Positions 6,072 through 61,215 of a DNA stretch of 64,000 nucleotides are shown here, one piece after another. Made by a program: the position numbers and the translations under genes. The notes under the pieces are model-generated. The model saw only the letters and a program-made list of their open reading frames with translations, searched no databases and was not told the DNA's origin. The DNA comes from a virus, in IMG/VR virus record IMGVR_UViG_3300014202_001529; one strand, 5' to 3'. The stretch's first letter is position 1. Every line of letters starts with the position of its first letter.

Positions 6072-6754
6072 GTTGTTGCCATTTTGGAGGTGAAAATGTT
6101 GATGCTGGTGCCCCCTTTCTTCTTCACCCAAAACCAAATGCCAACAATGATGAGCAGCACCAGAATGATGATGAAAATGGTAGAGCCTCCGCCGCCACTG
6201 CCTGGTTCCTTGATTTTGGAGCCAAAGAGAAAGCTCCAAATCTTTTCGAGCAGGTTGGGCTTGTCTATGAAGATTTCGTAAGACATTGGATTGAGCGCCA
6301 AAAGGCCAAACAGGCTACCCCCAGGCGCATCTTCCGTTTGTCCGTACCCTACAATGCTATCCTTGCCGATAGCAGGATTGTAAAATCCGCCGCCTTCGGG
6401 GTTGTACTCCAGCTTCAGCACATTTTCCATCATAAATTTGATGTTGCGCCGGTTGATTTGCTCTCCAACCAGTTTGGCAACGGGTTGCAGTTTTTCACCC
6501 TCTACATACTCCGTACCATTGGGTTGGATGAAGAAAATAAGCGTAGGGTCGGTTTTGACTTTTAGCTGCGGGTGCTTTTTTGCATCGGCCATCGGAAAAG
6601 ACCAGTAATCAATGCCAGAAAGCATGGCTTCGTCTTGTGGAAAACTTTCCATGCCTGCCCAAATTTCTTCTGAGAAATTGTGACCATCTGCCCAGTATTT
6701 TTCCCAGTCTTCTGTGTAGACGGCCAGAAGGTAATAGTACTTTAAATCACTCAT
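6068..6754 (-). CDS. Membrane-anchored protein with possible degenerate thioredoxin-like domain
   Basis: PTLIFF segment resembling the thioredoxin cis-Pro strand; C-terminal hydrophobic run IFIIILVLLIIVGIWFWV followed by KKK; no CxxC. Confidence 0.45.
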   Translation of the reverse strand: MSDLKYYYLLAVYTEDWEKYWADGHNFSEEIWAGMESFPQDEAMLSGIDYWSFPMADAKKHPQLKVKTDPTLIFFIQPNGTEYVEGEKLQPVAKLVGEQINRRNIKFMMENVLKLEYNPEGGGFYNPAIGKDSIVGYGQTEDAPGGSLFGLLALNPMSYEIFIDKPNLLEKIWSFLFGSKIKEPGSGGGGSTIFIIILVLLIIVGIWFWVKKKGGTSINIFTSKMATT

Positions 6755-7488
6755 ATCCGATTATACTTTTGAGTTAAAGCGACGCACGCAACGAGTGCCA
6801 CCACAATGAGTAGAAAAAGCCCCCATTCGCGCTGTGCAGCAGGCGAGTGCAGGATGTATTTTGCGCTTTGCAAAAAGTAGAATATCCGGTTGTTTCCGGA
6901 TGCCGTCACCGCGCCTTCTTCCGACTGATCGGGGAATTTTTCCAGCCGGTTCAGCCAGCCTTGCAAAAAGCCCGACTGTTGCGGCTTTGAGGTTACAATG
7001 TCCTGGTAGTATTGCGCCCGGCGATCTTTGTACAAGTTGTGGAGCACGCCAGGGTGATGCTGATCCACGGCAGACAATGTGGCTGTGCCAATGCGACCAT
7101 CCACCTTCAGCTTTTCGCCGAATTTCTGGTTCAGGGTGCTTTGCAGCATCGTGATTCCACCGGTTTTGCCGCTGCTCCCGGGACCGTGTTGGATGGTGGC
7201 ATCGAATACGATTTCAGCGAGCGCCTGGTTGGCGATTTCGCCCAACTGGTTTTTGTCCCAAAACCACTTTTTGTAAATCTCCATCGCCACGGCCTGCGAC
7301 AAGCCTTTCATATCGGCTGCACTTGGCACGCGACCAAGCCACGATTCCAGAATGGGCGCAGAAATACCGTATTTGGTGCCAACCAACTGGCCACGGCTGT
7401 TGTAGTTGCCGCTGTCCATGTCGTTGTTCTGGTAGCCGCCTTCTAATTCCAAAATTTTGGCCTGCAATGACGAGGTGAACTTTGCCAT
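6751..7488 (-). CDS. Glycoside hydrolase family 108 lysozyme with peptidoglycan-binding domain and C-terminal TM anchor
   Basis: EGGY...D.G...GTKYGIS catalytic segment; RRAQYY...FLQGWLNRL PG_binding_3-type tail; terminal hydrophobic helix. Confidence 0.88.
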   Translation of the reverse strand: MAKFTSSLQAKILELEGGYQNNDMDSGNYNSRGQLVGTKYGISAPILESWLGRVPSAADMKGLSQAVAMEIYKKWFWDKNQLGEIANQALAEIVFDATIQHGPGSSGKTGGITMLQSTLNQKFGEKLKVDGRIGTATLSAVDQHHPGVLHNLYKDRRAQYYQDIVTSKPQQSGFLQGWLNRLEKFPDQSEEGAVTASGNNRIFYFLQSAKYILHSPAAQREWGLFLLIVVALVACVALTQKYNRI

Positions 7489-7931
7489 TATTTCTTCTTT
7501 TTGCGGGTGAACCAGAACCAAGCCAGAACGGCCAGGCCAATGATGATGAGCGACGCCAACACCCAGCTAAACTCCTTCAGCCTTTTGATGACGTCCACGC
7601 CGATGCCTACTTTGCCGATCGGGTAGCCCAATTCGCTTAGCGTGTCCATTAGGGTACTTTCCGTGGCCCAATCAGCGGCGTCAATTGTTCGAAGAACGTT
7701 GCCGCTTGATGCCTCGATGAAAGCAAAAGAAGGAATGTTTGACAGGCCGTATTGGCTCATCAACAGCATGGTGTCTTCATTCTCATCATCCATCACCGGG
7801 AAAAGCACGGTGTTGCCTAACTGCTGGTAGTAGTTCTCGCTTACGCGCTCAACGATTTTAAGCAGCGGACCACACGCCGCGCAGTTGTCGGAGTGGAAGT
7901 AGAACACTGTGATCAAATTTTCGCTTTTCAT
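7488..7931 (-). CDS. Thioredoxin-fold protein (CAAC) with C-terminal TM anchor
   Basis: VFYFHSDNCAACGPL active-site context, YGLSNIPSFAF, C-terminal TM followed by RKKKK. Confidence 0.8.
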   Translation of the reverse strand: MKSENLITVFYFHSDNCAACGPLLKIVERVSENYYQQLGNTVLFPVMDDENEDTMLLMSQYGLSNIPSFAFIEASSGNVLRTIDAADWATESTLMDTLSELGYPIGKVGIGVDVIKRLKEFSWVLASLIIIGLAVLAWFWFTRKKKK

Positions 7932-9554: not shown

Positions 9555-10082
9555 CTATTTTTTTGGCCAATACCGCTGAATAACCATTAGGTATTCTTCA
9601 GTATTCCCATGATGAAGCGATCTAAGCGCTTCAAAAAAACAAACGATTTCTTCGTGTACACTAAATACTTTTTTGGGCAAATGATAGGTAAATTCTTGAT
9701 CATAGTTCCACTCAATCCGGTCTCCTTTAATAAGAAACTGCGCAAGGGCATTGATGATGGTTCGGGATTTATCTGCATGGCAGTTAAACCCTTCGTAGAC
9801 TTGTATGATTTCGTCCAACTGCGCTTCAACAAATTCAGAATTAAGAAATAACCATTTGGCTTTATCGCTTATTCCCTCAATTTTTGAACTCAAAAACCCA
9901 TTCAAAAACTTTTCATACGGGTAGATCATGGTGTAAAAAAAAGACTCAACATCTCCTATCTTTTGGAGACAGTCTTTGTTGATGTGATCGGCCTCCAAAA
10001 CGGCTTGGTAAAGTGCTATTTCTTCGGCTTTAATACCGTCAACCATTGACAGCATTATCTTTTTCAAACTAACTTCTTCCAT
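9555..10082 (-). CDS. Hypothetical protein (AT-rich)
   Basis: 175-aa ORF. Confidence 0.65.
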   Translation of the reverse strand: MEEVSLKKIMLSMVDGIKAEEIALYQAVLEADHINKDCLQKIGDVESFFYTMIYPYEKFLNGFLSSKIEGISDKAKWLFLNSEFVEAQLDEIIQVYEGFNCHADKSRTIINALAQFLIKGDRIEWNYDQEFTYHLPKKVFSVHEEIVCFFEALRSLHHGNTEEYLMVIQRYWPKK

Positions 10083-10834
10083 GTTGGTAGCTTTTTTCTA
10101 AAGTAATAAAACGCAAGTCCAAACAGCAACACCGCCACCAGCGCCCACGCCAGCGACCTGCCCTTAATATCCTCTCCCCGATCATCCGGACTGACAATTT
10201 CCCGGAACATGCCCACAATGGCCCCAAATGGCCGAAAAAGCCAGTCGAACGAGATTCCCCCCGATGATTGTTGTGTGATATTGGCCGATACGGTGTCGGT
10301 GTTGTAGCGCAGCCGCTTCTGGTTGTTCCAGTAAGCGTAGCGGGCACCCCGCCAGGTCTCCGTCCGTTTGCTGCGGAAAGATGGATACAGTTCTGATTGA
10401 ACTGTATCTATATGCAGGAAGGTATCATACACGCCAAAACCCCTTGCGCCGGCATCCCACAATGCCCGAAAAAGCGGGCCTTTGGCCTTGTAATCTTCGC
10501 GGATCGAAACGTACAGCCGATCTACCTCTGCCTGAGCGCCAATGAACTGGAAATCTATCGCACACGCAAGCATGTGCGGACTTTGAGAAACGCCCCCTGG
10601 GGGGACGTAAGTGCGGTAGGTGGACGTTATCCGGATTGGATAGTCGAAAGCGTCGCGGATGATCTGTACGCAGCGCACTGCCTGCAAGGAGATTGGATGC
10701 GAACGCCCGATTTTCGGATTATACAGTTCAGCTTCCGTGAAATTGTCCGTCACCCGAGCGGATGAACCGGCACTGACCATCACGAAATCGTTCGGGTCGT
10801 TGGCATGCAGTGGTAAAAGCGTGTCAGGCTTCAT
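10064..10834 (-). CDS. Peptidase M15-family Zn peptidase (peptidoglycan hydrolase) with C-terminal TM anchor
   Basis: ITSTYR...SPHMLACAIDF (H-x6-D) and FLHIDT zinc ligands; terminal LAWALVAVLLFGLAFYYF followed by RKK. Confidence 0.82.
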   Translation of the reverse strand: MKPDTLLPLHANDPNDFVMVSAGSSARVTDNFTEAELYNPKIGRSHPISLQAVRCVQIIRDAFDYPIRITSTYRTYVPPGGVSQSPHMLACAIDFQFIGAQAEVDRLYVSIREDYKAKGPLFRALWDAGARGFGVYDTFLHIDTVQSELYPSFRSKRTETWRGARYAYWNNQKRLRYNTDTVSANITQQSSGGISFDWLFRPFGAIVGMFREIVSPDDRGEDIKGRSLAWALVAVLLFGLAFYYFRKKLPTWKKLV

Positions 10835-11138
10835 CTTCTTGTTCTGATTTTAGCTTTAGCCAGAGGATTGCGGCCAGCACAATGACCAATATTAGCAAAA
10901 TCCCGGTTGCGAGCTTGTAATTAAATCCGGGTTTTGGTGGTGGTGCTGGTTGTGGCGTTGTTGCTGTTGTGGCTCCTTTTTCGACGAACGCGTTAATGGC
11001 GTTTTCAAATAAAGCGCCAACGAACTCCCCTTTGTAGGGCGTGCCGGTTTCACTGTCTTTTTGCTCTTCATAGAGCTTCAAGACGTTTTCGGCAATGCCT
11101 GCATCTACTTTCATTCCCAATAGGGTGACTTTGCTCAT
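10824..11138 (-). CDS. Small membrane protein with C-terminal TM
   Basis: Pro/Thr linker followed by LATGILLILVIVLAAILWL-KLK. Confidence 0.75.
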   Translation of the reverse strand: MSKVTLLGMKVDAGIAENVLKLYEEQKDSETGTPYKGEFVGALFENAINAFVEKGATTATTPQPAPPPKPGFNYKLATGILLILVIVLAAILWLKLKSEQEDEA

Positions 11139-11158
11139 ATCGCATCTTATTTAAGAAG

Positions 11159-11173
11159 TTGCAATATACGCAA
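11159..11173. promoter_or_regulatory. Operator palindrome, variant copy (TTGCAATATACGCAA)
   Basis: Matches TTGCG-N5-CGCAA with one mismatch; lies just upstream of the 11138 start. Confidence 0.6.
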
Positions 11174-11208
11174 TTTTTGTTTTATCAAACAAACCTGTAA
11201 AGGGATTT

Positions 11209-11613
11209 TTACACTGACTGGAATTGCCGCAGCTCTATCATCCCCTCTTCGACTGCCGCGTTGAAGGCATAAAGCACCAGCAGGTAGGCCGGGTCGGCGC
11301 TTTGGTGAACATCCTGCGTTTCCAAAATCGCTTCGTGCGATTCTGTGTTTTCGCGGTAGTACTTAATCAGCCGCTCTACAATTGCAGAAGCTGCGCCGCT
11401 TTTGGTTTTATAGATCCGGTCCACTTCTTTCCACCACGGAGCACCGTGGAATCTTACATTTTTGGTTTTGGCGTTGGCAAACGGGTTGTCGCCTTCGCTT
11501 TCCGCAGCAGCGGTATTGCTGTTCTTTTTCCACAAACGAAAAGCTGCATACCACGCGGCAATGGTGAGCAGAATCAATAGTACCAGGGCAATTGTAGCGG
11601 TCGTCTTTTTCAC
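11209..11613 (-). CDS. Membrane protein with N-terminal TM
   Basis: MKKTTATIALVLLILLTIAAWYAAF-RLWKK. Confidence 0.75.
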   Translation of the reverse strand: MKKTTATIALVLLILLTIAAWYAAFRLWKKNSNTAAAESEGDNPFANAKTKNVRFHGAPWWKEVDRIYKTKSGAASAIVERLIKYYRENTESHEAILETQDVHQSADPAYLLVLYAFNAAVEEGMIELRQFQSV

Positions 11614-11620
11614 GGCATTT

Positions 11621-11824
11621 CTATTTTCTTGCAGCAGCCACGCTGGCCGCTATCATCACAATGAGCAAAAACAATAAGCCCAGGATCACATACAACAGGG
11701 TATTATCCCTGCTTTTCTGGAAATCCTTGGCTGTCATCCAATCCGGTAGCCTACCCCAGCGAGCTTCTTTGTCGGCAGCAAAAAGGTTGGTGACGGATGT
11801 TAGAAACCCAAAAATTGCGTTCAT
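11621..11824 (-). CDS. Small membrane protein with C-terminal TM
   Basis: LLYVILGLLFLLIVMIAASVAAA-RK. Confidence 0.75.
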   Translation of the reverse strand: MNAIFGFLTSVTNLFAADKEARWGRLPDWMTAKDFQKSRDNTLLYVILGLLFLLIVMIAASVAAARK

Positions 11825-11828
11825 GACT

Positions 11829-12206
11829 TTATTTTTTACGACTCAACCGCCGCATAAGGAAAAAGCCGGTAATTCCAACCAAAACCAACAGGGCAATCAC
11901 AATCGGCCAGAGCATTTGTGTGCGCTCGGCCTCCTGCTGTTTTTCGCCGGTTGGGTCATAAAACTCTTCGATGGTTGCATCCTGGCCGGAGCAGGGATCG
12001 TATCCGTAGGCAGACATCACCACACGGCGGTCCACGTAGTTCCCGGTGCATAAAAACTCATCCTTGGTTGCAAGGTTGTAGTTCCCGCTGCACGCAGCGT
12101 CGCACGCACGTTCCAAATCGGGCTGCGCACCAAACCAGCTTTTGCACCGCTGCCGGCAATGCAGTTTTTTGCAGGATTTGTACCCTAAGCACGCTTCTAA
12201 GGCCAT
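11829..12206 (-). CDS. Cys-rich membrane protein with C-terminal TM
   Basis: Eight Cys in the N-terminal domain, then TM and RRLSRKK. Start MALEAC follows the stop of the 12211 ORF. Confidence 0.75.
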   Translation of the reverse strand: MALEACLGYKSCKKLHCRQRCKSWFGAQPDLERACDAACSGNYNLATKDEFLCTGNYVDRRVVMSAYGYDPCSGQDATIEEFYDPTGEKQQEAERTQMLWPIVIALLVLVGITGFFLMRRLSRKK

Positions 12207-12210
12207 AGCT

Positions 12211-12366
12211 TTATTTTTTTCGTGTGGATGCAAATACAAGCCCGGAAACGATCAGGGCAATGCCGACTACAATGCCGACAAAAATCAATATGCGCCGACG
12301 TTTCCTACCTGCGCAATTGTTGCAGCCGCAGCCGCAATCCTCTTTTTGTTCTTGTGGATGTTCCAT
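12211..12366 (-). CDS. 51-aa membrane microprotein with CGCGCNNC motif (not in ORF track)
   Basis: Hand translation: MEHPQEQKEDCGCGCNNCAGRKRRRILIFVGIVVGIALIVSGLVFASTRKK; fills the gap exactly. Confidence 0.7.
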   Translation of the reverse strand: MEHPQEQKEDCGCGCNNCAGRKRRRILIFVGIVVGIALIVSGLVFASTRKK

Positions 12367-12369
12367 GTG

Positions 12370-12702
12370 TTATTTTTTACCTCCCCTGAACAGGAAGATG
12401 ATCAATACCAGCACAACCACCACCACCAACGCCACAATGGCGTACATGAGCGTGTTGTTCTGTTGTGGTGCTGGTTGGCCGTTATAGCCTCCCGGCGTTG
12501 GATTGGAACCGCTGCCGCCCCGGTTCAGGATGGCGTCGAGCACTGCGCCCAGGCCGGTGCCCCAACCTGCGGCGTTTTCGCCGGAGTACCAGGGATCAGT
12601 TTTTGTGCCGTCGTTTCCAGCGCCCGTAGCGGATTGGCCCGTTGTTGGCGCCCGCAATCCTTTTATGTTGGAGCCGTAGCCCTGCATGCCAATGGTTTCC
12701 AT
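12370..12702 (-). CDS. Gly-rich small membrane protein with C-terminal TM
   Basis: Gly/Asn/Pro-rich N-terminus; LMYAIVALVVVVVLVLIIFLF followed by RGGKK. Confidence 0.75.
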   Translation of the reverse strand: METIGMQGYGSNIKGLRAPTTGQSATGAGNDGTKTDPWYSGENAAGWGTGLGAVLDAILNRGGSGSNPTPGGYNGQPAPQQNNTLMYAIVALVVVVVLVLIIFLFRGGKK

Positions 12703-12735
12703 AATACTGTTGCTTTTGAAAGTGAAAACATGAGC

Positions 12736-12765
12736 GCCTGCCTGCTTGAAAAGCAGCAGGCAGGC
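12736..12765. terminator. GC-rich hairpin (weak terminator or processing site)
   Basis: GCCTGCCTGCT-8 nt-AGCAGGCAGGC perfect 11-bp stem between two ORFs; poor U-tract. Confidence 0.45.
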
Positions 12766-12776
12766 ACCTGATTAAA

Positions 12777-13229
12777 TTACTGTGGCGATCCAGCCTGGAC
12801 ACGCGAATTCGTTTCTAATTGCTTCGTATTAGCGCTGCCACCCGGCGTCGGGAAAAACCATTTCAGGATGTACGTGTAAAATCCGGTCGCCGTGGCAAAG
12901 CCTGCAATCAGGTCCCAAAAACCGGCTTTCCCATTCACAAAGAAGATAACTGCTCCTACGCCCGCAATAACGATTACCCGAAGGCGGACTTCTGTGATTT
13001 TTTTCAGGAACGGAATCCAATTCGACAGGTACGTGATCAGGATAATCAGAAACCCGTACAACGCAGTGTACCAGCTCAGCCATTCCGGCAATCCCCAGCC
13101 CGGCATGGGCAGTGGAAGTGGTTCCGGTGTGACGGTTTGTGCCAGGCACCAGGCCGTCATGGTAAATGCAAACAAAACAAGCAGCCCCATGCGCAGCATG
13201 AAGCGGTTAAGGTTCAGATGAAGGTTCAT
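12777..13229 (-). CDS. Multi-TM membrane protein with signal-peptide-like N-terminus (holin-like candidate)
   Basis: MLRMGLLVLFAFTMTAWCLA-QT followed by three hydrophobic helices. Confidence 0.55.
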   Translation of the reverse strand: MNLHLNLNRFMLRMGLLVLFAFTMTAWCLAQTVTPEPLPLPMPGWGLPEWLSWYTALYGFLIILITYLSNWIPFLKKITEVRLRVIVIAGVGAVIFFVNGKAGFWDLIAGFATATGFYTYILKWFFPTPGGSANTKQLETNSRVQAGSPQ

Positions 13230-13488
13230 TCTGTTGACGTTTTTTTATATTGGTGGTGAAATAAATTATTGCGGCCATTAACAGGCAATCTCGAATTGTG
13301 TAAGCCACAACATCCGGATAGACCAAACACGCGAACGAAGCAGCAGGAATCGTCAGCAGCAGCATTCTTTTCCACACCTGCACGCAGTCCTCCAACGCCG
13401 TGACAAATAGCAGCACGCCGATGATGAATCCTGTGTTGATCAGGATGTTAAAAAAAAACCGAGCTGTTTCTAATCCTTCTTTTTCCAC
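13207..13488 (-). CDS. Small multi-TM membrane protein
   Basis: Three hydrophobic segments. Confidence 0.6.
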   Translation of the reverse strand: MEKEGLETARFFFNILINTGFIIGVLLFVTALEDCVQVWKRMLLLTIPAASFACLVYPDVVAYTIRDCLLMAAIIYFTTNIKKRQQNEPSSEP

Positions 13489-13826
13489 GGGTTTAAGTCG
13501 TTTATCACTTTTTGCGGATTTTCCAAAAACTTTTTGGAAAGCGTTAGTATTCCTCCAATCAGGTACATACCGGTTAGTCCGAAGACAAACCCAAATCCCG
13601 CTGCGGCAGAAATTTTCAGTTCAATGAAATTCTGCACCAGCAATATTCCGTAGTAAGCCGATGCCAGTCCGGAGGCTACTTGTACCAAGGCTTCAAAAAA
13701 GGTAATGCCCTTTTGATGCGCCACGGCCAGTATGCCGCCGACAAATCCGGCAATCAGCGTCGCAGCCATTTCGCTGCCTAACTTTTCCGCCAACCACAGC
13801 TTTAGTTCGTCATTGTTCATGGTCAT
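13470..13826 (-). CDS. Putative holin-like protein
   Basis: 118 aa, about three Gly/Ala-rich TMs and a charged C-tail ending KKKD, a layout common in phage holins. Confidence 0.55.
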   Translation of the reverse strand: MTMNNDELKLWLAEKLGSEMAATLIAGFVGGILAVAHQKGITFFEALVQVASGLASAYYGILLVQNFIELKISAAAGFGFVFGLTGMYLIGGILTLSKKFLENPQKVINDLNPWKKKD

Positions 13827-13877: not shown

Positions 13878-15770
13878 CTACGGTACTTTTACCGTCGTAA
13901 TGGCTCGACCTTCTCTTACAATCAGCCAATCGTCTGGAATTGCCGTAGTGATCGTGGTATTCGGGCTTTTCTGTATCAGCCAATCCATTTTTTGTTCACC
14001 TGCGGTTATAGTCTCCATTGCTCCAGGAAGCAAATAATTCAAGGCGCTACCCGTAGCAAATCCTTCAGGCACGCAAACACCGATAAGGCCCTCCATATCG
14101 TCCGTTACCAGAAACCATTCTTTTTGCTTCTCATGCCCGAGTATGGCGCCCAAATGGTGCGACTCCAGCCCCTTGTAAGTGAAGGTGTAAGGCTTGATGG
14201 TTTGGAACCATAGCTTGATCTTAGTTCCGGTTTTCTGCATGGATGCGCGTTGCAAGGTCGTTGTTCGCACGCCGCCGTCTACGCCGGTGATGGTTTCCAC
14301 CTTCACATCCCAACCTTCGCGCTTCAGGATCATCTCAAAAAAATGGCGGCTGTAGAATGTGGCGTCCACAAAGCCGTGGTGGTCCAGCAGCACCAGGCCG
14401 CGATTGGTAAAAAATGTCTTGGTTTTGGTCAACGCATAGTCAAATGCGGCATCGTCCTGAAGGCGTGTGTTGAACACAACCGTCAGGAATATTTCCAGGT
14501 CGCGGAAAGCGGTGCCCGAGCTTGTTTTCCAGATCGTTCGCATAGCAGGTAGTACAAAGCGCACTTCGCGGTTTTCGCGCAGGGTGCTGTCCACCGGTGG
14601 ATCGGGGTCGGGATCAGGGTCGGTATAACCTGGCTTTCGTGGATCTTCGCCGTTTTTCAGCTTGGTGTTGTCGAATTCGAGCGGGCTTTTTGAGATGATT
14701 CCGGATAGCAGCGGACTGCCATAGCCAAAGAACTTATCCCAGCCCGGTGTGCCAAGGTTGTAGCTGTTTGCGGCAATGGATCGCTCGATTTGGTTGGCTG
14801 TCGCCTGTGGGTTCATGCTCGCATGAATGCCCGCAATGCCCGCCAAAATTGGAGTGGCCATGCTTGTTCCGGACATCTGCGCGTAGGCGTTCCCAAGGTG
14901 CGTACTGATGATGTTGCTCCCTGGTGCCGCTGCATATAGCTCCGGACCGTAGTTGCTGTAGGAAGCCCGGTTGCCATTGGCGTCGGCCAAAGCGCCAATG
15001 GCGTTGGCGTTTTTATCGGCCCCGGGGTGCGAAATTTTTTCCTGTCCGTTGTTCCCGGCTGCGATGATAACCAGTTGCCCGGCATCTCTGGCTTTTTGGA
15101 TGGCGGCACTGAGCGCTGCATCCGGACTGCTTCCGCCAAGCGAAAGGTTGTGGATGACGAACCAGCCTTGTTGCTGCAACACCTTTCCTTTTTCGATTCC
15201 GGAAAGCAGAGATGCAGTAATCCAGGGGTAGTTTCCCGCGCCGCTTTTGTTCAAACACTTGTGCAAGGCTGCACGCGCCTTCCCGGCCTCCACCAGCATT
15301 CGCGCTACGCCATACTCGATGTTTCCCTTCAGGGCCGCGATGCAGCCGAGCACGTGCGTGCCGTGGCCATGTTCGTCGAGCTTGACTGTTTCTCCGGTGA
15401 AGGTTTGGCACCTGCTTTTGTCCAGCACGGCCTGCAAGTCGGGGTGATTGGAATCGCCGGCAGTATCGTGAATAAACCAGAACACTGGCCGCTGCGCCGC
15501 TGACTTAATGGCCTGGTAGTAGGCCGATGTGCCAAACCACTGGTTGGCCCAGTTGCCTGCCTGCACATCGTAGTCCGATGGCCTGATGGCAATCTGTTCC
15601 ACCGGATCGAGCACCACATCGAAGTTTTCCTTCAGCAGGCGCACTTTTTCTTCTGCCGCAGACCATGTTTGATTGTCGTATGCTTCGGGCAATCCTTCGG
15701 GGACTTGCGCCGGGAGCATGTAGGCTGCAAAGAGCAACCAAGAGAGTGATAGGATGAGTTTGAGTTTCAT
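13878..15770 (-). CDS. Subtilisin-family (S8) serine protease with Sec signal peptide
   Basis: Asp in FIHDTAG, His in GHGTHVLG, oxyanion AAGNNG, Ser in MSGTSMATP. N-terminus MKLKLILSLSWLLFAAYMLPA-Q. Confidence 0.92.
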   Translation of the reverse strand: MKLKLILSLSWLLFAAYMLPAQVPEGLPEAYDNQTWSAAEEKVRLLKENFDVVLDPVEQIAIRPSDYDVQAGNWANQWFGTSAYYQAIKSAAQRPVFWFIHDTAGDSNHPDLQAVLDKSRCQTFTGETVKLDEHGHGTHVLGCIAALKGNIEYGVARMLVEAGKARAALHKCLNKSGAGNYPWITASLLSGIEKGKVLQQQGWFVIHNLSLGGSSPDAALSAAIQKARDAGQLVIIAAGNNGQEKISHPGADKNANAIGALADANGNRASYSNYGPELYAAAPGSNIISTHLGNAYAQMSGTSMATPILAGIAGIHASMNPQATANQIERSIAANSYNLGTPGWDKFFGYGSPLLSGIISKSPLEFDNTKLKNGEDPRKPGYTDPDPDPDPPVDSTLRENREVRFVLPAMRTIWKTSSGTAFRDLEIFLTVVFNTRLQDDAAFDYALTKTKTFFTNRGLVLLDHHGFVDATFYSRHFFEMILKREGWDVKVETITGVDGGVRTTTLQRASMQKTGTKIKLWFQTIKPYTFTYKGLESHHLGAILGHEKQKEWFLVTDDMEGLIGVCVPEGFATGSALNYLLPGAMETITAGEQKMDWLIQKSPNTTITTAIPDDWLIVREGRAITTVKVP

Positions 15771-15780
15771 ATTATTGATA

Positions 15781-15795
15781 TTGTGTTTTACGCAA
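15781..15795. promoter_or_regulatory. Operator palindrome, variant copy (TTGTGTTTTACGCAA)
   Basis: 10 bp upstream of the S8 start. Confidence 0.6.
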
Positions 15796-15798
15796 TTT

Positions 15799-18606
15799 TT
15801 AAACCAAAGCATAGGGCACAGTAACTCCTGAATAGTTTTCAATCCTATAAACAGTAGACCCTGAGCTTATATACATGTTAGTGCCAGTAATTGTAAGAGA
15901 TTTTGGGTTATCACTGTTAAGAGTAGCGTAGAGTTCTACTGACAAAGTTGTCAAGTCGATTCTGTAAATAGCAGGTTTGCCACTTACATTTGAGATTATC
16001 GAAGCATACAAGATATTCCCAACAGCTTGGAAACAATTAGACACTTGCCAGTTCTGACTACCCCAACTTGATCCTGATCCCCAACCATACTGTACAGCAG
16101 TGGAGTTTGTAGATATTGTTGTAGTTGACAAAACGTTCCCAATAAAACCAGCAGTAATTCCCGTAGGTATTTCTGATTTAGCTAAAGCTGTAACCCTAAC
16201 TCTTGAACTTGATTGCTCATTCCTTAACCAGAAAACATAATCATCGCTTGAACCCATAACTCCTAAGTCAGTAGGAAGGTCAGGGTCTTGTATTTCTAAA
16301 AGATGAACGTTACTATCATCTATTACAGATAGATCAAGTTCATCTATAACTGCTATATGTGGGTAAATGTCTAAGCCTGTATTCTCATCAATCCAGATTC
16401 CAGAACCAACAGTCTCTTCAAACCTAATACCTCTTAGCCCCGATCGTGACTTAGGTTGTAGTCCTATGTAAATATAAGAACCATCTGATTCTACCCCCCT
16501 TCCATTAAACCTGCAAGTATTGTAAAACTTGTTAATGGCTTCATGTCTTGCAAGGCCATAATTAGACATATAGTTTGTCAAAGCAGTTTCACATTCAGCA
16601 TCAGAATAAGTTTCTTGAGGAAGTAAAGATTGACTTCTAACACTTACGGTATTAGCTGTGCTTAAAGCAGCAGGTAAAGTTAAAGCTGTGTTTATAGTCC
16701 CAACAATATAAGACATATACAAGTAAATATTTCTGTAAGATGAAAGCCTTACACCTTCTCCTGTCAACACCCACTGACTGCCAACTCTTTTAGCATACAT
16801 GACTTCTCTCATACCCCCTTGAACGGGGATATTGGTTCTAACCACATTTGCAGGATCAGTTACATTTAATAACTCACATCCACTGATATATCCGTAAGTT
16901 AGTAATTCGTTAGTTGCCGCATTGAATATACTCCCATTAGGACTTAGTAATCTTGATGTGTAGGATATTCTATCATAAGTTTCTAAGCCTGTTAACTCTA
17001 CAATAGCAACGCCGGAATAACTTTTACCAACAACTGCAATTAAGTTTGTACCAATCTCAATTGCATTATTTAATAGACCTACAAAAGTTGGAACTTTATC
17101 AAAATTATAAGTATGGGCTGCTTCTGGTAAAGCCCAATCTGCCGTAGCCTTTACTGTAATACTTGCAAGGTCAGGTCTTTCTGGATCAATCTCTGTTATT
17201 ATCTCTCCGTAGAAAGCGGCTCTAACTTTTGTATTACTTAATGACCTAAACCAATCTTCCCCATCAGTTGCTGTGAATAAAGTTGTTCCATCTTTATAAT
17301 AAAACCCAAGCCCGTGCTCTTCCGTATGATCCCATATAGATATTTCAGCTACGATATAGCTATCAGGATCAGTAGTTGGATTATAAGCTTGAAACGTTTT
17401 GTTATCTGGCCGTATAAACCCTATTGTTCCTGCTAAATTGTACAGAAATGCAACATATTCATCACTACTTGAAAACCCAAAATCACCTCTAAAATTAGCC
17501 TTAAAATACCTTTTTGCGCTATTAGGTACAAATAACATTCCATCAGCTTTATCAAAACTATCTGTGTAGATTGCTTCTCCTGTTTCTTTATCTATTGCAT
17601 AAGACATTAACTGAGCAGCAGAACCATAGTAACTACCAAACCCGCCTTGATATACAAACCTACCAAACCCGATATAAGCGTCAAGAAACTCAGAGCTGAA
17701 GGTTCCTGTCATAAGAGCCGGGACATCTACCCTAAAGGAGTCAAGTGTTAAAACAGCAGACCATGCGGAATCGTCAACAGGAGTTGCAGTTTCATCAACC
17801 CAAGTTGCATTATTATAACCAGTAGACAAAACGGAGCCAGTAGAATACTGGCTATCAATATAAGTCGAAGGAGATTTAATATCTATAAACTTGAAAGTTC
17901 CATCTGCTTTTACAAACAACCTTCGTGTCGCAGAAGCTATTTCTCTATCGTCGGTATGCAGCCAGTAACCACTTGTTACAGTCAATCCAGAGCTTGCAAC
18001 TTCAGCAGCTATTGTAGATACTAAAGCTGTTTCATAGTCTGGTGCAAAATAATATTCACTATAAACCCCAGCAAAATCACCATCTATCTTTACAGCAGTA
18101 AGGTTAAAAGCTCCTAACCTGTGATTCATTTCGTTGTCGGTAGAAAACGAAACATTAGTTAACTCTTTTGTTACTACATCTAATTTAAAAAGCCCGGGGA
18201 TTCTACCAAAACCTCTTGTACCAAACCAAATATCACCATCTGATGAAGGTCTGGAAACATAAGTAAAGTCTCTAAAAGAGTGACTTAAAAAAGGAGAAAT
18301 ATAAGTACTCCCGTTTGTATAGTCATATCTTTTTAACTCCCCCGTCAAACAGTTTAATTCTAAAATATAGCCATAATAAGCCATAAAATATAAACAGTTT
18401 GATTTCCAAGAATAAGACATATAAGTTCTTGGAGGCTCTGTTGTAGAGTTTGATCCAGACCTAACTATAAATCCTGTTCCTGTTTCTGGGGTTAGTTGCA
18501 AAATAGCATACGAATTTAAGAAGACTATAATCTGGTCAAGACCTGTGACATCTTTCATCAGTACGACACCTGTTATACCGACGTTCTTTATTATTTCACT
18601 ATACAT
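15799..18606 (-). CDS. 935-aa beta-rich (propeller-like) putative receptor-binding or spike protein, low GC
   Basis: Short beta-strand/turn repeats rich in S, T, G, Y and D; lies in the fibre cluster; visibly AT-rich codon usage. Confidence 0.5.
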   Translation of the reverse strand: MYSEIIKNVGITGVVLMKDVTGLDQIIVFLNSYAILQLTPETGTGFIVRSGSNSTTEPPRTYMSYSWKSNCLYFMAYYGYILELNCLTGELKRYDYTNGSTYISPFLSHSFRDFTYVSRPSSDGDIWFGTRGFGRIPGLFKLDVVTKELTNVSFSTDNEMNHRLGAFNLTAVKIDGDFAGVYSEYYFAPDYETALVSTIAAEVASSGLTVTSGYWLHTDDREIASATRRLFVKADGTFKFIDIKSPSTYIDSQYSTGSVLSTGYNNATWVDETATPVDDSAWSAVLTLDSFRVDVPALMTGTFSSEFLDAYIGFGRFVYQGGFGSYYGSAAQLMSYAIDKETGEAIYTDSFDKADGMLFVPNSAKRYFKANFRGDFGFSSSDEYVAFLYNLAGTIGFIRPDNKTFQAYNPTTDPDSYIVAEISIWDHTEEHGLGFYYKDGTTLFTATDGEDWFRSLSNTKVRAAFYGEIITEIDPERPDLASITVKATADWALPEAAHTYNFDKVPTFVGLLNNAIEIGTNLIAVVGKSYSGVAIVELTGLETYDRISYTSRLLSPNGSIFNAATNELLTYGYISGCELLNVTDPANVVRTNIPVQGGMREVMYAKRVGSQWVLTGEGVRLSSYRNIYLYMSYIVGTINTALTLPAALSTANTVSVRSQSLLPQETYSDAECETALTNYMSNYGLARHEAINKFYNTCRFNGRGVESDGSYIYIGLQPKSRSGLRGIRFEETVGSGIWIDENTGLDIYPHIAVIDELDLSVIDDSNVHLLEIQDPDLPTDLGVMGSSDDYVFWLRNEQSSSRVRVTALAKSEIPTGITAGFIGNVLSTTTISTNSTAVQYGWGSGSSWGSQNWQVSNCFQAVGNILYASIISNVSGKPAIYRIDLTTLSVELYATLNSDNPKSLTITGTNMYISSGSTVYRIENYSGVTVPYALV

Positions 18607-19282
18607 TTTTCGTTACGTTTATAGTCCCTTCCACATTTTCAAACGTTAGAATGAATGAGGAGTCAAGAACTTGAGGAGATAGAAATAGCCCAGTATCGCC
18701 TTGTGTAGAAGCAGGCGGAGTTACCCAATTTACAGGATAACCATTGGGATAGATATAAATGTTATCATTACTTCCCATTGTAGGGTTTAATCTTTTTCTA
18801 ATTACTGTAACTTGGGTTGAAGAACCTTCTTCTATTTTTCCTATATAAATAGCTTTGTAGGGAAATACTAAATTAGTCAATTTATATCCATCTGCTATAA
18901 AAGGAGCATGAACCTCCATTTCATAAATGAATCCACTATTAATAAATCCATGTACAGGTAATGTTTCTATAACAGGCAAAGCTGTTAATTGTAAATATGT
19001 TCTTGGAGAGTCTTCTGTATTTACAACTCTTTGCCCTGTTTTGATTCTTACTCTATCTCCGGGAAATAAAGTTGGATTAAATAACTCTGCTTGTTCTACT
19101 GTTTCATACCACAATGTTTGTGGGCTTGTACTATTAAACAAGCTATGGCTAAAAGCTCCGGGCTTGCCAGATACTTTGGCTATTAGCGTGTACCGAACGC
19201 CCTCATATACGTACCAGTATTTTCTACCAGCAACAAGAGTAGTTGATCCGGGGATAAATCTAATAATCGGTATCCTTGCCAT
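18599..19282 (-). CDS. Hypothetical beta-rich structural protein, low GC
   Basis: Start taken at MARIP; in the fibre cluster. Confidence 0.55.
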   Translation of the reverse strand: MARIPIIRFIPGSTTLVAGRKYWYVYEGVRYTLIAKVSGKPGAFSHSLFNSTSPQTLWYETVEQAELFNPTLFPGDRVRIKTGQRVVNTEDSPRTYLQLTALPVIETLPVHGFINSGFIYEMEVHAPFIADGYKLTNLVFPYKAIYIGKIEEGSSTQVTVIRKRLNPTMGSNDNIYIYPNGYPVNWVTPPASTQGDTGLFLSPQVLDSSFILTFENVEGTINVTKNV

Positions 19283-19283
19283 A

Positions 19284-21788
19284 TTAATAGATTTTACGAC
19301 TATAAACAGAATAACGATATACCGTAATAGTGTCACTTCCGCTTACAGGCTCAATTCGTAGATCGAAAGTATCATCGGTGCTAACTGTTACGTTTACTTT
19401 AGGCAACGATACAACTCCATAAGTTCCAGTAGCTACTGTAATCCTTACTTTGGTAGAAGCAATTTCAGAACCTTCTTGGAATAAACTAACAAGATAATCT
19501 CCACCAGTTGTAGGAGTAAAACTAACGTTGCCTGTAATTTCAGTTTGACCGGAAGCTCCTATATAGGTAATAGTGCTTCCAGTTTGGGTAAACTCTGCGC
19601 TTACGTTTCCGGTAGGTGTACCGGGAGTGTCCCCATCAGGCAATTCAGGAGTTCCAGTAGTTACACTCGTAGAACCACCACTAATAGCAACTTCTCCCCA
19701 ATGTTCTACTGTTGAGATATAGGCTGTGTCTCTTGTACCTGTTACCTCTTGAATTGCAATACCAGAACCTCCTTTAAATACAACAGGAGTTCCGTTACTA
19801 TTATCTAATTGAAGAACATTCCCCGAACCAGACAAGCTAAGATTAGTAGGAACTAAATCTGCGGTATGAGCTACTGTAAATCTTGTACCAGATTGATTGG
19901 TAAATAGTAATCTTGCTCCCCCTGTTTCTGGTTCTAAGGTTAATGCTTGTGGTGTAGTTAATTGAACTCCATTGCTAAATTTGAAAGGAGCTAAAACAGA
20001 AGTACCAGCTTTTAAATGTAATCCAGCAGTAGGAGATGTAATCCCTAAGCCTACATTACCAGCAGGGTTAATAACCATATGAGCATTGTAAGAGCTGCCT
20101 CCATTTCCTACCTGAAACACGTCATTAGTGTAAGTTCTGATATGAGTTCCGCTTGTTGAAAGAGGAGCAGTGTCTACTGTGAATACAGTACCAGAAATCA
20201 CTTCTTTAACTGATCTATACGACATATTCGTACTGGTTGTTTCCAAGAGAGTAATCCCTTGTCCAACTGCTAAAGTTGCTACGGTTGAAGTAAGTGTTAT
20301 AGTATCAGATAAAGCAGTCCAATTGTTAGTTGTGGCCGTGTTATATCCCATTACTCTTATTTGTGGAATAATACCAAAACTAACTAAACCGCTACCTTGA
20401 GCAATAGTGGCTTTTTCAAAGTCACCATTTCCAACTCCAAGTAAAGCTGTACTGGCGCTTGATGAAATTAAAAGTCTTCCTATGGAGTAAGCATTGCTAT
20501 GCGCAGATGCAGCTTGATGGCCAAAAGCATAACCCCCATTACTACCGGCTGACAAATAACCAATTGCACAAGAAAAGCCTGTACCACCTAAACTGCCTCC
20601 ACCTCCAATCATTATACCATTTCCTCCTAAAGAAAAGCCGCTTCCTATGCCTATTCTTGTCTCCGCAGCAGTAGTAATCCCGGATTGGACATAAATCAAA
20701 TCTTGTTGATTAGACCCATGCCACGGAATCGGCCCTCTGACATTAAAATATGGCCTTCCTTGTAAAGCAGCAGTACTAAAGCCTATACCAAAATATCCTT
20801 TTGATGTAGTAGTTGTCGCAGGAGTAGTTGCGTAGGTTTGACCTTCAACTTCTATAAACGGAGGCCATTGTGGAGTCCCACTTGTAGCGGTTGTTGTATT
20901 TCTAAGAACAAGATTCTTTAAAGACCCATATGTTGCTCCTATTCCAGTAGCAGTCAATCTTAATCTTTGAGATTCATATTCAAAGTCAGAACTATACTTT
21001 AGCCTGCCAGTTGCTCCACTGTGAGCAACTTGATTTGGACTTCCAAGCCCGTCTGCTGTTTCAGATAAGATAACTGAATCAGGAAAACATATTGCAAGAG
21101 CAGCAATAGCTTCCGCCATGTTTGTTACAGGTACTCCGCAGATAGTATCAATTATAGCAACACTATCGGCATCCAAATCAAAACTCTCCCCACCTGTAAT
21201 ATTATTTACCCCTTCCGAAGTTGTGATGTTGAACAAAGGAACTGTCCCTACATCTTTAGAATAAGGCTTGACTGGGTTAATGATACTAATACCCCCTATT
21301 ACCTGTACAATTAAAACTTCACTTGTATCCGGACTTGGTAATAATCCGGCCCCTGTTGAATAATATTTCCCGTCAGGTAGTCCAAAGTTAGTTTCCACAA
21401 ATCCGCAGTAGACAATAATAAAGGAGTTGGCCGAAAGCGAGGATAAAACAATCCCGATTGCAAAAACCGTGTCCCCGTGAGGGATTTCAGCAAAGGCTGT
21501 TCCATTCCAGTAAACAGGATCAGAAGCGACAAAGCCATGCGAAGCCTGGGTAACCGTGTCTCTACAATATTCGTTTGCTCCCAACGCCCCTTTCAATTGT
21601 TGTAGTGTCAAATCCTGCGGAGTTGCCGATGATCCTGTCAAATTACCTTTTACGGTATTTGCAGGCATATCAGCCAGCCTGGCATTGTTGATCGTGGAGT
21701 CTTCCACGGGCACCACCACCCGTCTCCCCTGCTGCCCAAACGCCGAAAAGCCAGCCATAACAGCCAGCACAAGAATAAAAGATCGCAT
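19284..21788 (-). CDS. Fibre/spike-like protein with Sec signal peptide and YadA-head-like repeats
   Basis: MRSFILVLAVMAGFSAFG-QQ; LADMPANTVKGN fibre motif; AIGY..AG..G.YAFG..A repeats; GNVGLGITSP repeat. Confidence 0.65.
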   Translation of the reverse strand: MRSFILVLAVMAGFSAFGQQGRRVVVPVEDSTINNARLADMPANTVKGNLTGSSATPQDLTLQQLKGALGANEYCRDTVTQASHGFVASDPVYWNGTAFAEIPHGDTVFAIGIVLSSLSANSFIIVYCGFVETNFGLPDGKYYSTGAGLLPSPDTSEVLIVQVIGGISIINPVKPYSKDVGTVPLFNITTSEGVNNITGGESFDLDADSVAIIDTICGVPVTNMAEAIAALAICFPDSVILSETADGLGSPNQVAHSGATGRLKYSSDFEYESQRLRLTATGIGATYGSLKNLVLRNTTTATSGTPQWPPFIEVEGQTYATTPATTTTSKGYFGIGFSTAALQGRPYFNVRGPIPWHGSNQQDLIYVQSGITTAAETRIGIGSGFSLGGNGIMIGGGGSLGGTGFSCAIGYLSAGSNGGYAFGHQAASAHSNAYSIGRLLISSSASTALLGVGNGDFEKATIAQGSGLVSFGIIPQIRVMGYNTATTNNWTALSDTITLTSTVATLAVGQGITLLETTSTNMSYRSVKEVISGTVFTVDTAPLSTSGTHIRTYTNDVFQVGNGGSSYNAHMVINPAGNVGLGITSPTAGLHLKAGTSVLAPFKFSNGVQLTTPQALTLEPETGGARLLFTNQSGTRFTVAHTADLVPTNLSLSGSGNVLQLDNSNGTPVVFKGGSGIAIQEVTGTRDTAYISTVEHWGEVAISGGSTSVTTGTPELPDGDTPGTPTGNVSAEFTQTGSTITYIGASGQTEITGNVSFTPTTGGDYLVSLFQEGSEIASTKVRITVATGTYGVVSLPKVNVTVSTDDTFDLRIEPVSGSDTITVYRYSVYSRKIY

Positions 21789-21816
21789 ATAATTAGAGTT
21801 GATCATGTCAAGATAA

Positions 21817-23262
21817 TTAAGGTTTAATCTTTAAATTTCGATCGCCGGTGACGCGGTACACGCCGCCCGATGGAAGCCCCCCATCGGCATCTGCGGCAGC
21901 GTCGTTGGCATAGGATGGAATATCTGGGTGAATGACTAAATCGCCGCTGGCGTCCTGGTAGATGGCGTTCTTTTTCCAGAAAACAAACCCGTCTAAATCT
22001 GAACCTATTACATCAGAAACAGTCCCTTGAAGACCAAGCGAATCATAAATTTTCCCTTTAAAATAGGAGTCGCCGTTGACTGAAAAAAATACGCCAGGAC
22101 CGCGAGTAGCTGGTGTGGTTATGGGGGGCACAGTAGCGCCAATTCTGAACGTTGTAATGGAATCAAAATAAGTCACGTTAGCTTGTAGCTGGATAGCCAA
22201 ATTTCCAGATTGTGTGTAAAGCCAGAATCTCGGAGGGTTAGGCGCAGCGCTGGTAACTGTATTAAAAGTAATAGCTGGCTGCCCGCCCATCGTCCACCGA
22301 AGTACGCTGCCTCCAGGGCTTTCTATGTGCACATTAGCAGTAGGTACTTGCAGGCCAATGCCAACTTTTCCAGTGTGGTAAATGTCCTGCGTGATGTTGG
22401 ATGGGATGGTGTTTGCCGTGCCGGAAACATACCAGTCTGCATCACCGCTACCCGCGTTGATTGGGTAGTTGTCCACATCCCCATTGTAATACTCCACCCG
22501 CAGCGTCGTATCCCCTGGAGTGGTTACCGAAATGACCGGATTGTTGATGACCGGGCTCCCCCCCGGCCCAAACGAAACCACCAATTCCGGCACATCAAAA
22601 TATGCCTTATCCGTCCCGAACGTTCGGAAACCAAAAATGGCGTAGGTGCTGTCCGGAGTGGTCCCGAAGGTGCCGTTGTCCTGAAGGAAATAGTCATTGC
22701 CTTCCGGGCGCCCATGCGCCCAGGTGAGCCAGCCTTCGTTTTGGATCACAAAGGTGTTGGCATCTATGACCTGGCTGATGAACGCAACCGGGAAACTATC
22801 CGGTTCGGAAGCACTGGCCGGGAAGTAATCGCCGTTTCCGGGTTCCTGGCCGACCATCGTGCCAGCAAAAAAACCGTGCCCCGTTTGGGTGATGGTGTCT
22901 CCACCTACGAAAGCCTGTATGATCTGTTGGATATTCGAGCCAGCCGTGAAGGTGTTGCCGCCAATGGTGATGTTGGCCGTGGTGAAAATGTTGTCAGCCT
23001 GGGCATTGATGATGGTTGTGTCGCCGCTGATGGCGTAGGTATAGGTACCGTCGCCGTTGTCGGTCAGAGTGCCACCTCCACCGGTGCCCGGGGGAAGTAC
23101 GTCAATCAGCCGGCGAAACTGAAGCTCGCCAAGGCTGTCAGAGTAGAGGATGTAGGCGCTATCCGGCGCCACATAAATCTGCTTCGCCGGGTTGATGCGG
23201 CGTTGTGCGGTCAAGGCCGTCACGGTGAGCAAAAGAGCGAGTATGGTGAAAAGTTTCTTCAT
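21817..23262 (-). CDS. Fibre/spike-like protein with Sec signal peptide
   Basis: MKKLFTILALLLTVTALTA-QR; LTDNGDGTYTY and GKVGIGLQVP repeats; shares a TQxxHGF...NxFxI domain with the neighbouring fibre. Confidence 0.65.
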   Translation of the reverse strand: MKKLFTILALLLTVTALTAQRRINPAKQIYVAPDSAYILYSDSLGELQFRRLIDVLPPGTGGGGTLTDNGDGTYTYAISGDTTIINAQADNIFTTANITIGGNTFTAGSNIQQIIQAFVGGDTITQTGHGFFAGTMVGQEPGNGDYFPASASEPDSFPVAFISQVIDANTFVIQNEGWLTWAHGRPEGNDYFLQDNGTFGTTPDSTYAIFGFRTFGTDKAYFDVPELVVSFGPGGSPVINNPVISVTTPGDTTLRVEYYNGDVDNYPINAGSGDADWYVSGTANTIPSNITQDIYHTGKVGIGLQVPTANVHIESPGGSVLRWTMGGQPAITFNTVTSAAPNPPRFWLYTQSGNLAIQLQANVTYFDSITTFRIGATVPPITTPATRGPGVFFSVNGDSYFKGKIYDSLGLQGTVSDVIGSDLDGFVFWKKNAIYQDASGDLVIHPDIPSYANDAAADADGGLPSGGVYRVTGDRNLKIKP

Positions 23263-25761: not shown

Positions 25762-26472
25762 CTAGTCGCGAGCGTAAGCCTGTACGAAGAAAGTCATGGT
25801 GATGACCATCCCGTGGTAGGCATTGAAAACCCAGGCGCAGTTGCGATCCACACGCGACTTCTCATCCGTCAGCGGGATGATGTACGTGTTGCGGTCGTAG
25901 TTGGCCGGGTCGTTGAAGTTGCCGAGTGGCAATTCATGCGACACTTTCTTCCGTGTGGTCATGTTGTAGCAGATGATCCGCTCCTGGTACTGCATCAGTG
26001 CAGTCGCAGCGGCACCTGCCGCTGGCGCTACATCAATCTTCACGCCGCTGAACAGGTAAGTTTGTCCACACAGACCGGCAACCCAGCTGTTGTACAAGTT
26101 ACGGGCAGCAGTATTGACATACACGCTATTGGCTGGGAATGGCGTAGCCAAACCTTCATAAGCCTGGAAGTATTTGCCCTCATCGAAAAGGACGATTTGC
26201 TGCTGTGCGGAAGTGAGGCCGAGGGCAACCGTGTTTACTACAACCGTTACGCTGTCCTCAACAGCAATTCCTTCAGGGATGGACAAGTTAGCGATCGGTT
26301 GGCCAACAGGCACCTTTGCGCTTACGTTCATGCCGCGTTCGGGCAGGATGAGCTTTGTGCCTGCGCCTGGAACAAGCTTAGATGCCGTGCCGGGGAGTAG
26401 GTTAGAAGAAACCGCGTCCGAAGCCTGACGGTTCATTTTGGATCTGGTAAGCAATTGTTGGAAAGCACTCAT
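25762..26472 (-). CDS. Putative major capsid protein with jelly-roll-like fold
   Basis: 236 aa from MSAFQQ: ~70-aa low-complexity N-arm, then about eight predicted beta strands (VTVVVN, QIVLFD, YLFSGVKIDV, RIICYN, HELPL, TYIIPL, AWVFNA, VITMTFFV). First gene after the ATPase-operon terminator and ahead of the membrane-protein run. Confidence 0.5.
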   Translation of the reverse strand: MSAFQQLLTRSKMNRQASDAVSSNLLPGTASKLVPGAGTKLILPERGMNVSAKVPVGQPIANLSIPEGIAVEDSVTVVVNTVALGLTSAQQQIVLFDEGKYFQAYEGLATPFPANSVYVNTAARNLYNSWVAGLCGQTYLFSGVKIDVAPAAGAAATALMQYQERIICYNMTTRKKVSHELPLGNFNDPANYDRNTYIIPLTDEKSRVDRNCAWVFNAYHGMVITMTFFVQAYARD

Positions 26473-37286: not shown

Positions 37287-37301
37287 TTGCGAAAAACGCA
37301 A
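37287..37301. promoter_or_regulatory. Operator palindrome TTGCGAAAAACGCAA
   Basis: 8 bp from a minus-strand TAAATTTG box (37271-37278). Confidence 0.8.
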
Positions 37302-46720: not shown

Positions 46721-46735
46721 TTGCGTAAATCGCAA
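46721..46735. promoter_or_regulatory. Operator palindrome TTGCGTAAATCGCAA
   Basis: 8 bp from a minus-strand TATACTTG box (46705-46712). Confidence 0.78.
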
Positions 46736-46829: not shown

Positions 46830-46860
46830 TTGCGTTTTTCGCAATTATCTGTTATCTTTG
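46830..46860 (+). promoter_or_regulatory. Operator TTGCGTTTTTCGCAA plus TATCTTTG promoter box
   Basis: 8-bp spacer; divergent partner of the 46721 site. Confidence 0.8.
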
Positions 46861-53364: not shown

Positions 53365-53366
53365 GG

Positions 53367-61170: not shown

Positions 61171-61191
61171 GGGCACAAATATAAACATAAA

Positions 61192-61206: not shown

Positions 61207-61215
61207 TTTTAGACA

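Follow-up and report, generated by a model that had tools for sequence, protein, structure and literature searches.

Subtilisin gene and its export signal

We analysed a 64,000-nucleotide (nt) stretch of viral DNA (IMG/VR virus record IMGVR_UViG_3300014202_001529; the whole stretch is hereafter called the window) and focused on a minus-strand gene at 13878-15770, which encodes a subtilisin-family (S8) protein of 630 amino acids (aa) followed by a stop codon. The start was assigned to the ATG at 15770, a choice backed by the N-termini of homologues. A longer frame with a TTG start (13878-15842, minus strand) is also open, and the version of the protein in the protein collection starts earlier and comprises 644 aa. 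The Peptidase_S8 catalytic domain occupies residues 101-351 (14718-15470, minus strand), where Pfam PF00082 matches at E 2e-32 with 113.1 bits (cut-off 21.8). The protein also matches the PHROG family phrog_3677 'protease' (E 8e-36), and a profile built from 33 family members aligned with residues 22-258 of subtilisin BPN' in a search of the PDB (E 4e-61). The D-H-S triad occurs in subtilisin order together with the oxyanion Asn, in alignment with the BPN' motifs; the corresponding minus-strand codons are D102 (15465-15467), H136 (15363-15365), N240 (15051-15053) and S303 (14862-14864). All 33 family sequences have H136 (HGTHV), N240 (AAGNNG) and S303 (GTSMATP), and at least 90% of them have D102 (HDTAG); in the AlphaFold2 model the S8 domain has a predicted local distance difference test score (pLDDT) above 90. 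Judged by sequence, the gene is an intact subtilisin-type serine protease that is predicted to be active, in agreement with a preliminary description of this DNA, which had reported an intact S8 protease with the complete D/H/N/S set.

The same description had assigned a signal peptide to the S8 protein, and the family alignment bears this out. Residues 1-21 (15708-15770, minus strand) form a predicted Sec signal peptide of the Bacteroidota Q-rule type, in which MKLK is followed by a hydrophobic core and a predicted cut at PA↓Q, with Q22 retained in at least 90% of the 33 homologues. A Q-rule pattern has also been described for Porphyromonas phages (PMC10367356). The protein carries no lipobox, being a globular S8 with a signal of the signal peptidase I type. 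Approximately 45 residues, including a conserved D-x-V-L-D-P-I-E segment, separate the signal peptide from the mature-like domain, and an I9 propeptide (PF05922) was not found in the S8 protein by Pfam at E ≤0.01. The C-terminal 238 residues did not match the sorting domain of the type IX secretion system (TIGR04183 / PF18962) in Pfam/NCBIfam, although the last 115 residues are unmodelled and a divergent version is possible.

A family-specific C-terminal domain

Some 270 residues extend beyond the catalytic domain and have no match by sequence in Pfam, NCBIfam or the PDB. They comprise three parts, all on the minus strand: a Pro/Asp-rich linker of low pLDDT, modelled as disordered (14583-14648, residues ~375-396), a family-specific alpha/beta domain (hereafter the C-domain; 14226-14582, residues ~397-515) with conserved R401, W414, R457, D469 and F477, and a lineage-specific tail (13881-14225, residues 516-630) with pLDDT mostly <50, which is common to a single sibling protein only (P0003, see below). 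The full-length AlphaFold2 model, built on 33 sequences, has a mean pLDDT of 78.8, with block means of ~79-92 over residues 401-510 and <50 over residues 532-611. When modelled alone on 47 sequences, the C-domain reached pLDDT 95-98, with the secondary-structure order b-b-b-a-b-a-b-b. In a structural search against representatives, the top 16 rows were all T-fold proteins, the best being PTPS 2dj6_A (Z 9.4, root-mean-square deviation (rmsd) 3.6 A over 99 residues), and SPFH/FliL-type domains came next at Z 6-6.7. Foldseek gave weak matches to the PDB (best E 0.011) and matched QueD-like proteins among viral models at E 5e-4 with poor rmsd. The model thus suggests a T-fold-like topology; membership of the T-fold superfamily is not claimed, and the match may reflect only a common alpha/beta arrangement. 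A pterin or zinc site is not evident in the C-domain, although no search aimed at such sites was made. The extension of ~250 aa and unknown fold in the preliminary description is therefore real, at ~270 residues, and its fold is now partly resolved: a domain of T-fold-like topology, behind which comes a tail that is not predictable.

A search with the C-terminal 238 residues against 1.84 billion representative proteins found 38, nearly all of 476-689 aa with an S8 domain ahead; the remainder includes a few short pieces, and a fusion partner other than S8 was not found among the 38. The C-domain occurs in none of 50,697 GenBank phage genome records, and an ESM Atlas search with the C-terminal part returned no usable match. 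As far as these searches reach, the S8 and T-fold-like domains together define a protein family that cultured-phage records lack.

Recurrent linkage with holin and endolysin genes

Twelve IMG/VR loci carry S8 together with the C-domain, the latter confirmed by a hidden Markov model of the domain, and they represent approximately seven lineages. In the window, S8 is followed 51 nt downstream by a 118-aa holin-like gene with three transmembrane (TM) helices (13470-13826, minus strand; PHROG holin phrog_2359, E 4.6e-10). At locus L001 (record G001) the order is a phrog_2359 holin (E 1e-16), a 60-aa open reading frame (ORF) and S8, with an Amidase_3 endolysin nearby. L005 (G003) has a 2-TM protein, S8 and a phrog_199 holin (E 2e-9), L006 and L007 (G004 and G005) a TM protein, S8 and a phrog_894 endolysin, and L100 a phrog_894 endolysin (E 7e-39), two small genes, a 151-aa 3-TM protein and S8. 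At L097, which corresponds to the P0028 group in the protein collection, a 3-TM module and S8 form a single 679-aa ORF. At L008 a phrog_199 holin ORF lies upstream of S8, the two being separated by an ORF on the other strand, and L004 has a 2-TM protein without a family match, followed by S8. In G002/L003, S8 lies apart from a holin-like/endolysin pair. Overall, a holin or endolysin gene adjoins S8, or is one or two small genes away, in ~7 of 9 gene contexts, and S8 fits a component of the phage lysis cassette, being recurrently adjacent to and co-oriented with holin or endolysin genes across phages, with the exception of G002/L003.

The TM proteins beside S8 belong to three families (phrog_2359, phrog_199 and the fused type) between which hhalign found no homology, so that S8 is associated with a function rather than with any single partner. 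In L006/L007 the separate TM proteins encoded upstream of S8 are homologues of the fused 3-TM module (E ~1e-20), and the homologue of this module in G002 adjoins an endolysin-like gene. The single 679-aa ORF of L097 (L097:10001-12040) corresponds to two ORFs in L100 (L100:10001-10456 and 10534-11988), with 55% identity in the TM part; the junction retains a hydrophobic segment that ends in A/G-Q, and the L097 fusion may therefore still be cut by signal peptidase. Small same-strand ORFs with at least two TM helices lie within 1.5 kb of S8 at 8/12 C-domain loci against 10/64 S8 loci without a C-domain (Fisher p 6.5e-4), and a signal-like N-terminus is found at 10/12 C-domain loci against 15/64 other IMG/VR viral S8s (Fisher p 1.4e-4), but the 12 loci amount to ~7 lineages and both p-values overstate independence.

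Distribution across phages with unrelated structural genes

The protein collection holds one close sibling of the window's S8 protein, P0003, with 82% identity over the full length, and ~25 further relatives of 490-530 aa and 27-46% identity that span both S8 and the C-domain. The putative capsid protein of the window (25762-26472) has only three relatives there, the closest being P0124 at 66%. P0124 and P0003 come from the same source, agree in their contig count and in the length of the longest contig (69,876 nt), and very probably belong to the same element; a further protein from the search for capsid and ATPase relatives, P0126, was found on a 4.6-kb contig only. The preliminary description had named the lack of S8 in most related genomes as something that would speak against its reading. 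Among the relatives, the only one on a long contig keeps S8, at 82% identity against 66% for the putative capsid protein. The greater conservation of S8 relative to the capsid protein may indicate either unusually strong selection on the protease or a recent exchange of the lysis module.

Five of the 12 loci were examined as whole viral records (G001-G005). G001 and G004 each encode a terminase large subunit and a tape-measure protein, and G002 a terminase large subunit; G005 and G004 have structural genes in common, as do G003 and G002. The putative capsid and ATPase genes of the window have no detectable relative in G001-G005 or elsewhere in IMG/VR, the capsid profile found nothing in metagenome contigs or GTDB genomes, and a sequence comparison of the capsid protein and the ATPase gene with the PDB gave no match. 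Conversely, the window had no BLAST match among the terminase and tape-measure genes of G001-G005, and among 40 scanned window ORFs the only PHROG match to a head or tail category was a weak one to phrog_19418 'virion structural protein' (E 9.8e-4) on part of a 1606-aa helicase ORF. Each located member of the S8 family sits on an IMG/VR viral contig, and a pattern scan with a narrower alignment did not find the family in GTDB species genomes. The family is conserved, kept under constraint and linked to holins or endolysins in unrelated Bacteroidota phages. Its spread over lineages whose structural modules are unrelated excludes any role that depends on a particular type of capsid.

A putative role in host lysis

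We give an even chance to the proposal that S8 is exported by Sec and serves the lysis module as an accessory enzyme directed at envelope proteins. On the basis of the observed catalytic residues, export signal, private domain, spread and holin/endolysin linkage, we infer the following for its substrate, its timing and the way in which it would affect lysis. S8 would be made late alongside the holin and exported to the periplasm by the Sec system, where it would cut host envelope proteins, for example ties between the outer membrane and the wall or proteins of an outer layer. The envelope would then fail completely and the virions escape, which would add an enzymatic step to lysis. The C-domain would probably serve in oligomerisation or in targeting at the membrane or envelope. 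A lysis role fits the absence of an evident spanin in the window, where no lipobox-bearing spanin candidate was seen in the lysis region, and the existence of a known class of spanin-less phages: spanins were not found in 91/677 (~13%) Gram-negative phages, including phages of Bacteroides and Croceibacter (PMC6139136).

Several points weigh against this proposal. As we read the linkage, it is an association and would not by itself indicate a mechanism; the 'holin' labels are PHROG matches only, G002 and L003 depart from the pattern, and the number of lineages limits the statistics as stated above. A Sec-exported protease of broad specificity would, moreover, be expected to reach the periplasm before the holin fires, and in place of an I9 propeptide the protein has only a short conserved N-terminal segment. 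Finally, an 86-aa protein of L100 (L100:9736-9996), which starts with a TM helix and is coiled-coil-like in the rest of its length, is encoded between the endolysin and the TM-module/S8 pair and is, from its predicted features, a possible i-spanin-like or lysis-regulator gene, so that S8-bearing phages may not all lack spanins.

A broader and more tentative proposal, which we consider possible but somewhat doubtful, is that proteins combining S8 with the T-fold-like domain fill the place of the missing outer-envelope factor in the lysis of many spanin-less phages of Bacteroidota. They would carry out a third, proteolytic step of lysis by cutting protein tethers or outer layers of the envelope, and would be encoded in a holin-linked module that moves between particle architectures. 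The route of Bacteroidota phages through the outer membrane is unresolved, and S8 is a testable candidate for an enzymatic route. The distribution indicates that tailed phages and an element that seems to lack a tail can have a lysis module in common, and enzymes of this kind could be of interest for work on envelope-active phage proteins. Our literature search returned nothing relevant on phage subtilisins within lysis cassettes.

Neighbouring genes and alternative roles

The preliminary description had placed S8 between fibre genes and holin-like genes, and both sides of this arrangement are recovered. Directly upstream lies a 935-aa fibre-like ORF (15799-18606, minus strand), followed further upstream on the same strand by a 245-aa ORF and by proteins of 840 aa (19284-21806) and 481 aa (21817-23262) that carry signal peptides; the phrog_2359 holin gene lies downstream. 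The four fibre-like ORFs have no match in Pfam, NCBIfam or PHROGs. The content of guanine plus cytosine (GC) is 34-43% in a block at 15.8-21.6 kb (15800-21650), 52-58% in the S8 gene and ~50% beyond. This block covers the 935-aa ORF, the 245-aa ORF and most of the 840-aa ORF, with the 935-aa ORF as its last gene, and ends exactly at an intergenic palindrome upstream of S8. The GC content of S8 matches the backbone and that of the fibre block differs; S8 therefore appears to belong to the backbone, whereas the fibre-like block has the look of an exchanged segment, which would fit a swapped host-range cassette.

Fibre-like proteins with a Sec-type signal ending in A/S-Q are encoded in the window (19284-23262) and at six other loci (L001:1202-7430, L005:6059-9533, L006:2922-8657, L007:1514-7950, L097:2176-7304 and L008:4377-8806), several of them downstream of tail genes in Bacteroidota phages that have terminase and tape-measure genes. 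It is not obvious how such exported proteins would enter particles that are built in the cytoplasm, and they may or may not be virion components.

One alternative to a lysis role, which we regard as unlikely, is that S8 acts in the periplasm on the fibre-like proteins which the phage itself exports through Sec, trimming off anchors or chaperone-like parts, for instance. The large signal-peptide proteins just listed all lie upstream of S8, and the window's S8 directly follows the fibre block. The fibre-like genes are nevertheless highly divergent, and in the window sit in the swapped-in low-GC block, yet S8 is conserved; in G002, S8 is ~19 kb from the fibre genes; and holins and endolysins, not fibres, are its closest and most constant neighbours. 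Pfam and NCBIfam scans of the fibres also revealed no cleavage motif or chaperone domain.

The palindrome at the edge of the low-GC block bears on a second alternative. The motif TTGCG-N5-CRCAA has 17 matches in the window when both strands are counted (~9-10 sites), against 0.5 expected. Eight copies lie at 34575-34589, 37287-37301, 46721-46735, 46830-46844, 50237-50251, 52322-52336, 55232-55246 and 61192-61206. All eight are preceded by an A-tract, and seven have a TAnnTTTG box, the -7 promoter element of Bacteroidota, 7-9 nt downstream; the copy at 50237 has only the looser TAAATTCG. From their sequence context, the eight copies resemble promoters of the Bacteroidota type in which a common operator covers the -33 position, and they precede a methyltransferase gene, a PAPS-reductase-like gene, a DUF5131 gene and other early or accessory genes. 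Two similar gene pairs in this region (52345-55028 and 60307-63075) each consist of a phrog_424 PAPS-reductase-like gene preceded by a 553- or 597-aa ORF; the shared promoter-operator stands before the large ORF in one pair and before the PAPS-reductase-like gene in the other, and the pairs may represent a duplicated DNA-modification or anti-defence module.

The copy upstream of S8 (15781-15795, minus strand; TTGCGTAAAACACAA), 10 nt upstream of the ATG, is a half-degenerate version of the palindrome TTGCG-N5-CGCAA, with a degenerate right arm (CACAA) and without a -7 box. These two features make a promoter-operator function doubtful, and we therefore did not retain the site as an active promoter-operator; it looks like a relic or a roadblock-type site and is not an evident promoter. 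An operator directly upstream of S8, as initially described, is thus present as a palindrome sequence, but its function is questionable. S8 is separated from the genes on either side by 28 nt and 51 nt, and the simplest view is that it is transcribed together with the late genes.

Against this background, there is a low probability that S8 is a moron-type or receptor-destroying enzyme, either secreted to remove phage receptors or surface proteins from the lysogen or from cell debris, with superinfection exclusion or prevention of re-adsorption as the result, or serving the host as a nutritional protease. Its position at a module boundary is typical of morons, an operator-like palindrome of the kind common to accessory and early genes lies upstream, and the protein is an exported subtilisin of a generic, broad type. 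That palindrome, however, is the copy without a -7 box, and the short gaps suggest late co-transcription; the GC content of S8 equals that of the backbone; and the C-domain is fused solely to S8, with the located members viral and none found in the GTDB pattern scan. Steady embedding in lysis cassettes across lineages is also not expected of a moron.

A third alternative concerns the other lysis genes of the window. Two endolysin-type enzymes, a Peptidase_M15_3 / phrog_894 protein (10064-10834, minus strand) and a phrog_315 protein (6751-7521, minus strand), each end in a TM helix. Between the former and the holin gene, a dense run of small proteins (10824-13488) has one TM helix each, mostly C-terminal and with a basic tail behind it; a 136-aa protein rich in Cys and a 51-aa protein with CGCGCNNC belong to this run, and the M15 and phrog_315 enzymes have the same C-terminal anchor as these small proteins. 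S8 could act on such proteins of its own phage, freeing the membrane-tethered wall-cutting enzymes or cleaving the holin or an antiholin to set the timing, and the holin-like TM module fused to or directly before S8 in several phages would agree with this. We nevertheless judge it improbable: the endolysins of L006 and L100 are small and have no predicted TM helix, which excludes release of anchored enzymes as the general role, and enzymes that are anchored at the C-terminus and have no signal peptide may lie on the cytoplasmic side, beyond the reach of a periplasmic protease.

The idea that S8, the only protease seen in the late region, matures the capsid or virion of a jelly-roll virus is very improbable, and we rejected such a role (adenain/Ulp1-type or prohead), because the conserved Sec signal peptide puts S8 outside the cytoplasm and the same family occurs in terminase/tape-measure phages with unrelated head genes; in the window, a distance of ~10 kb also separates S8 from the genes for the putative capsid protein and the ATPase. 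The preliminary description had likewise set S8 apart from classical capsid maturation proteases, a view upheld by the signal peptide and the spread over unrelated head lineages. Its framing of the locus as a virion morphogenesis block is not supported, since the S8 family is found in phages with unrelated heads and beside holins or endolysins rather than head or fibre genes as such. Of the three roles that it offered, degradation of host surface layers fits the lysis-cassette linkage best, fibre processing and the release of anchored enzymes being less probable.

Comparison with known systems

The S8 protein shares its catalytic domain and its D-H-(N)-S motifs with subtilisins of the BPN'/Carlsberg type (MEROPS S8A). 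It differs from them in the missing I9 propeptide, the ~45 extra N-terminal residues, the added C-domain and tail, and in being phage-borne. S8 proteins of cultured phages (phrog_3677; for example gp011 of Bacillus phage vB_BsuM-Goe3 and gp123 of Bacillus phage vB_BanS_Skywalker) are 30-38% identical over ~230-290 residues. They are, however, 286-326 aa long and without a C-domain, and are encoded amid genes for early functions or nucleotide metabolism instead of in a lysis cassette. For the C-domain, the comparison is with T-fold proteins (PTPS/QueD, dihydroneopterin aldolase and FolX): the model superposes on PTPS, but identity is 3-14% and the strand order has an additional N-terminal hairpin.

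In the C-terminal TM helices of its small membrane proteins, the window may resemble membrane-containing tailless phages of the PRD1/PM2 type (lysis/entry enzymes P15 and P7); to our knowledge, no exported serine protease has been described for these phages. The putative lysis role of S8 invites comparison with spanins (lambda Rz/Rz1 and T1 gp11), the disruptin gp28 of phage phiKT and mycobacteriophage LysB, which enzymatically cleaves the connection of the outer layer to the wall. S8 is unrelated to all of these in sequence and structure. We considered S8 as a spanin and rejected this assignment, as a globular S8 without a lipobox resembles spanins in its proposed role only. Unlike membrane-fusion proteins or cationic peptides, S8 would be a protease exported by the Sec system ahead of holin action. 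What it has in common with spanins, the disruptin and LysB is its position in the lysis cassette and the proposed removal of the outermost barrier.

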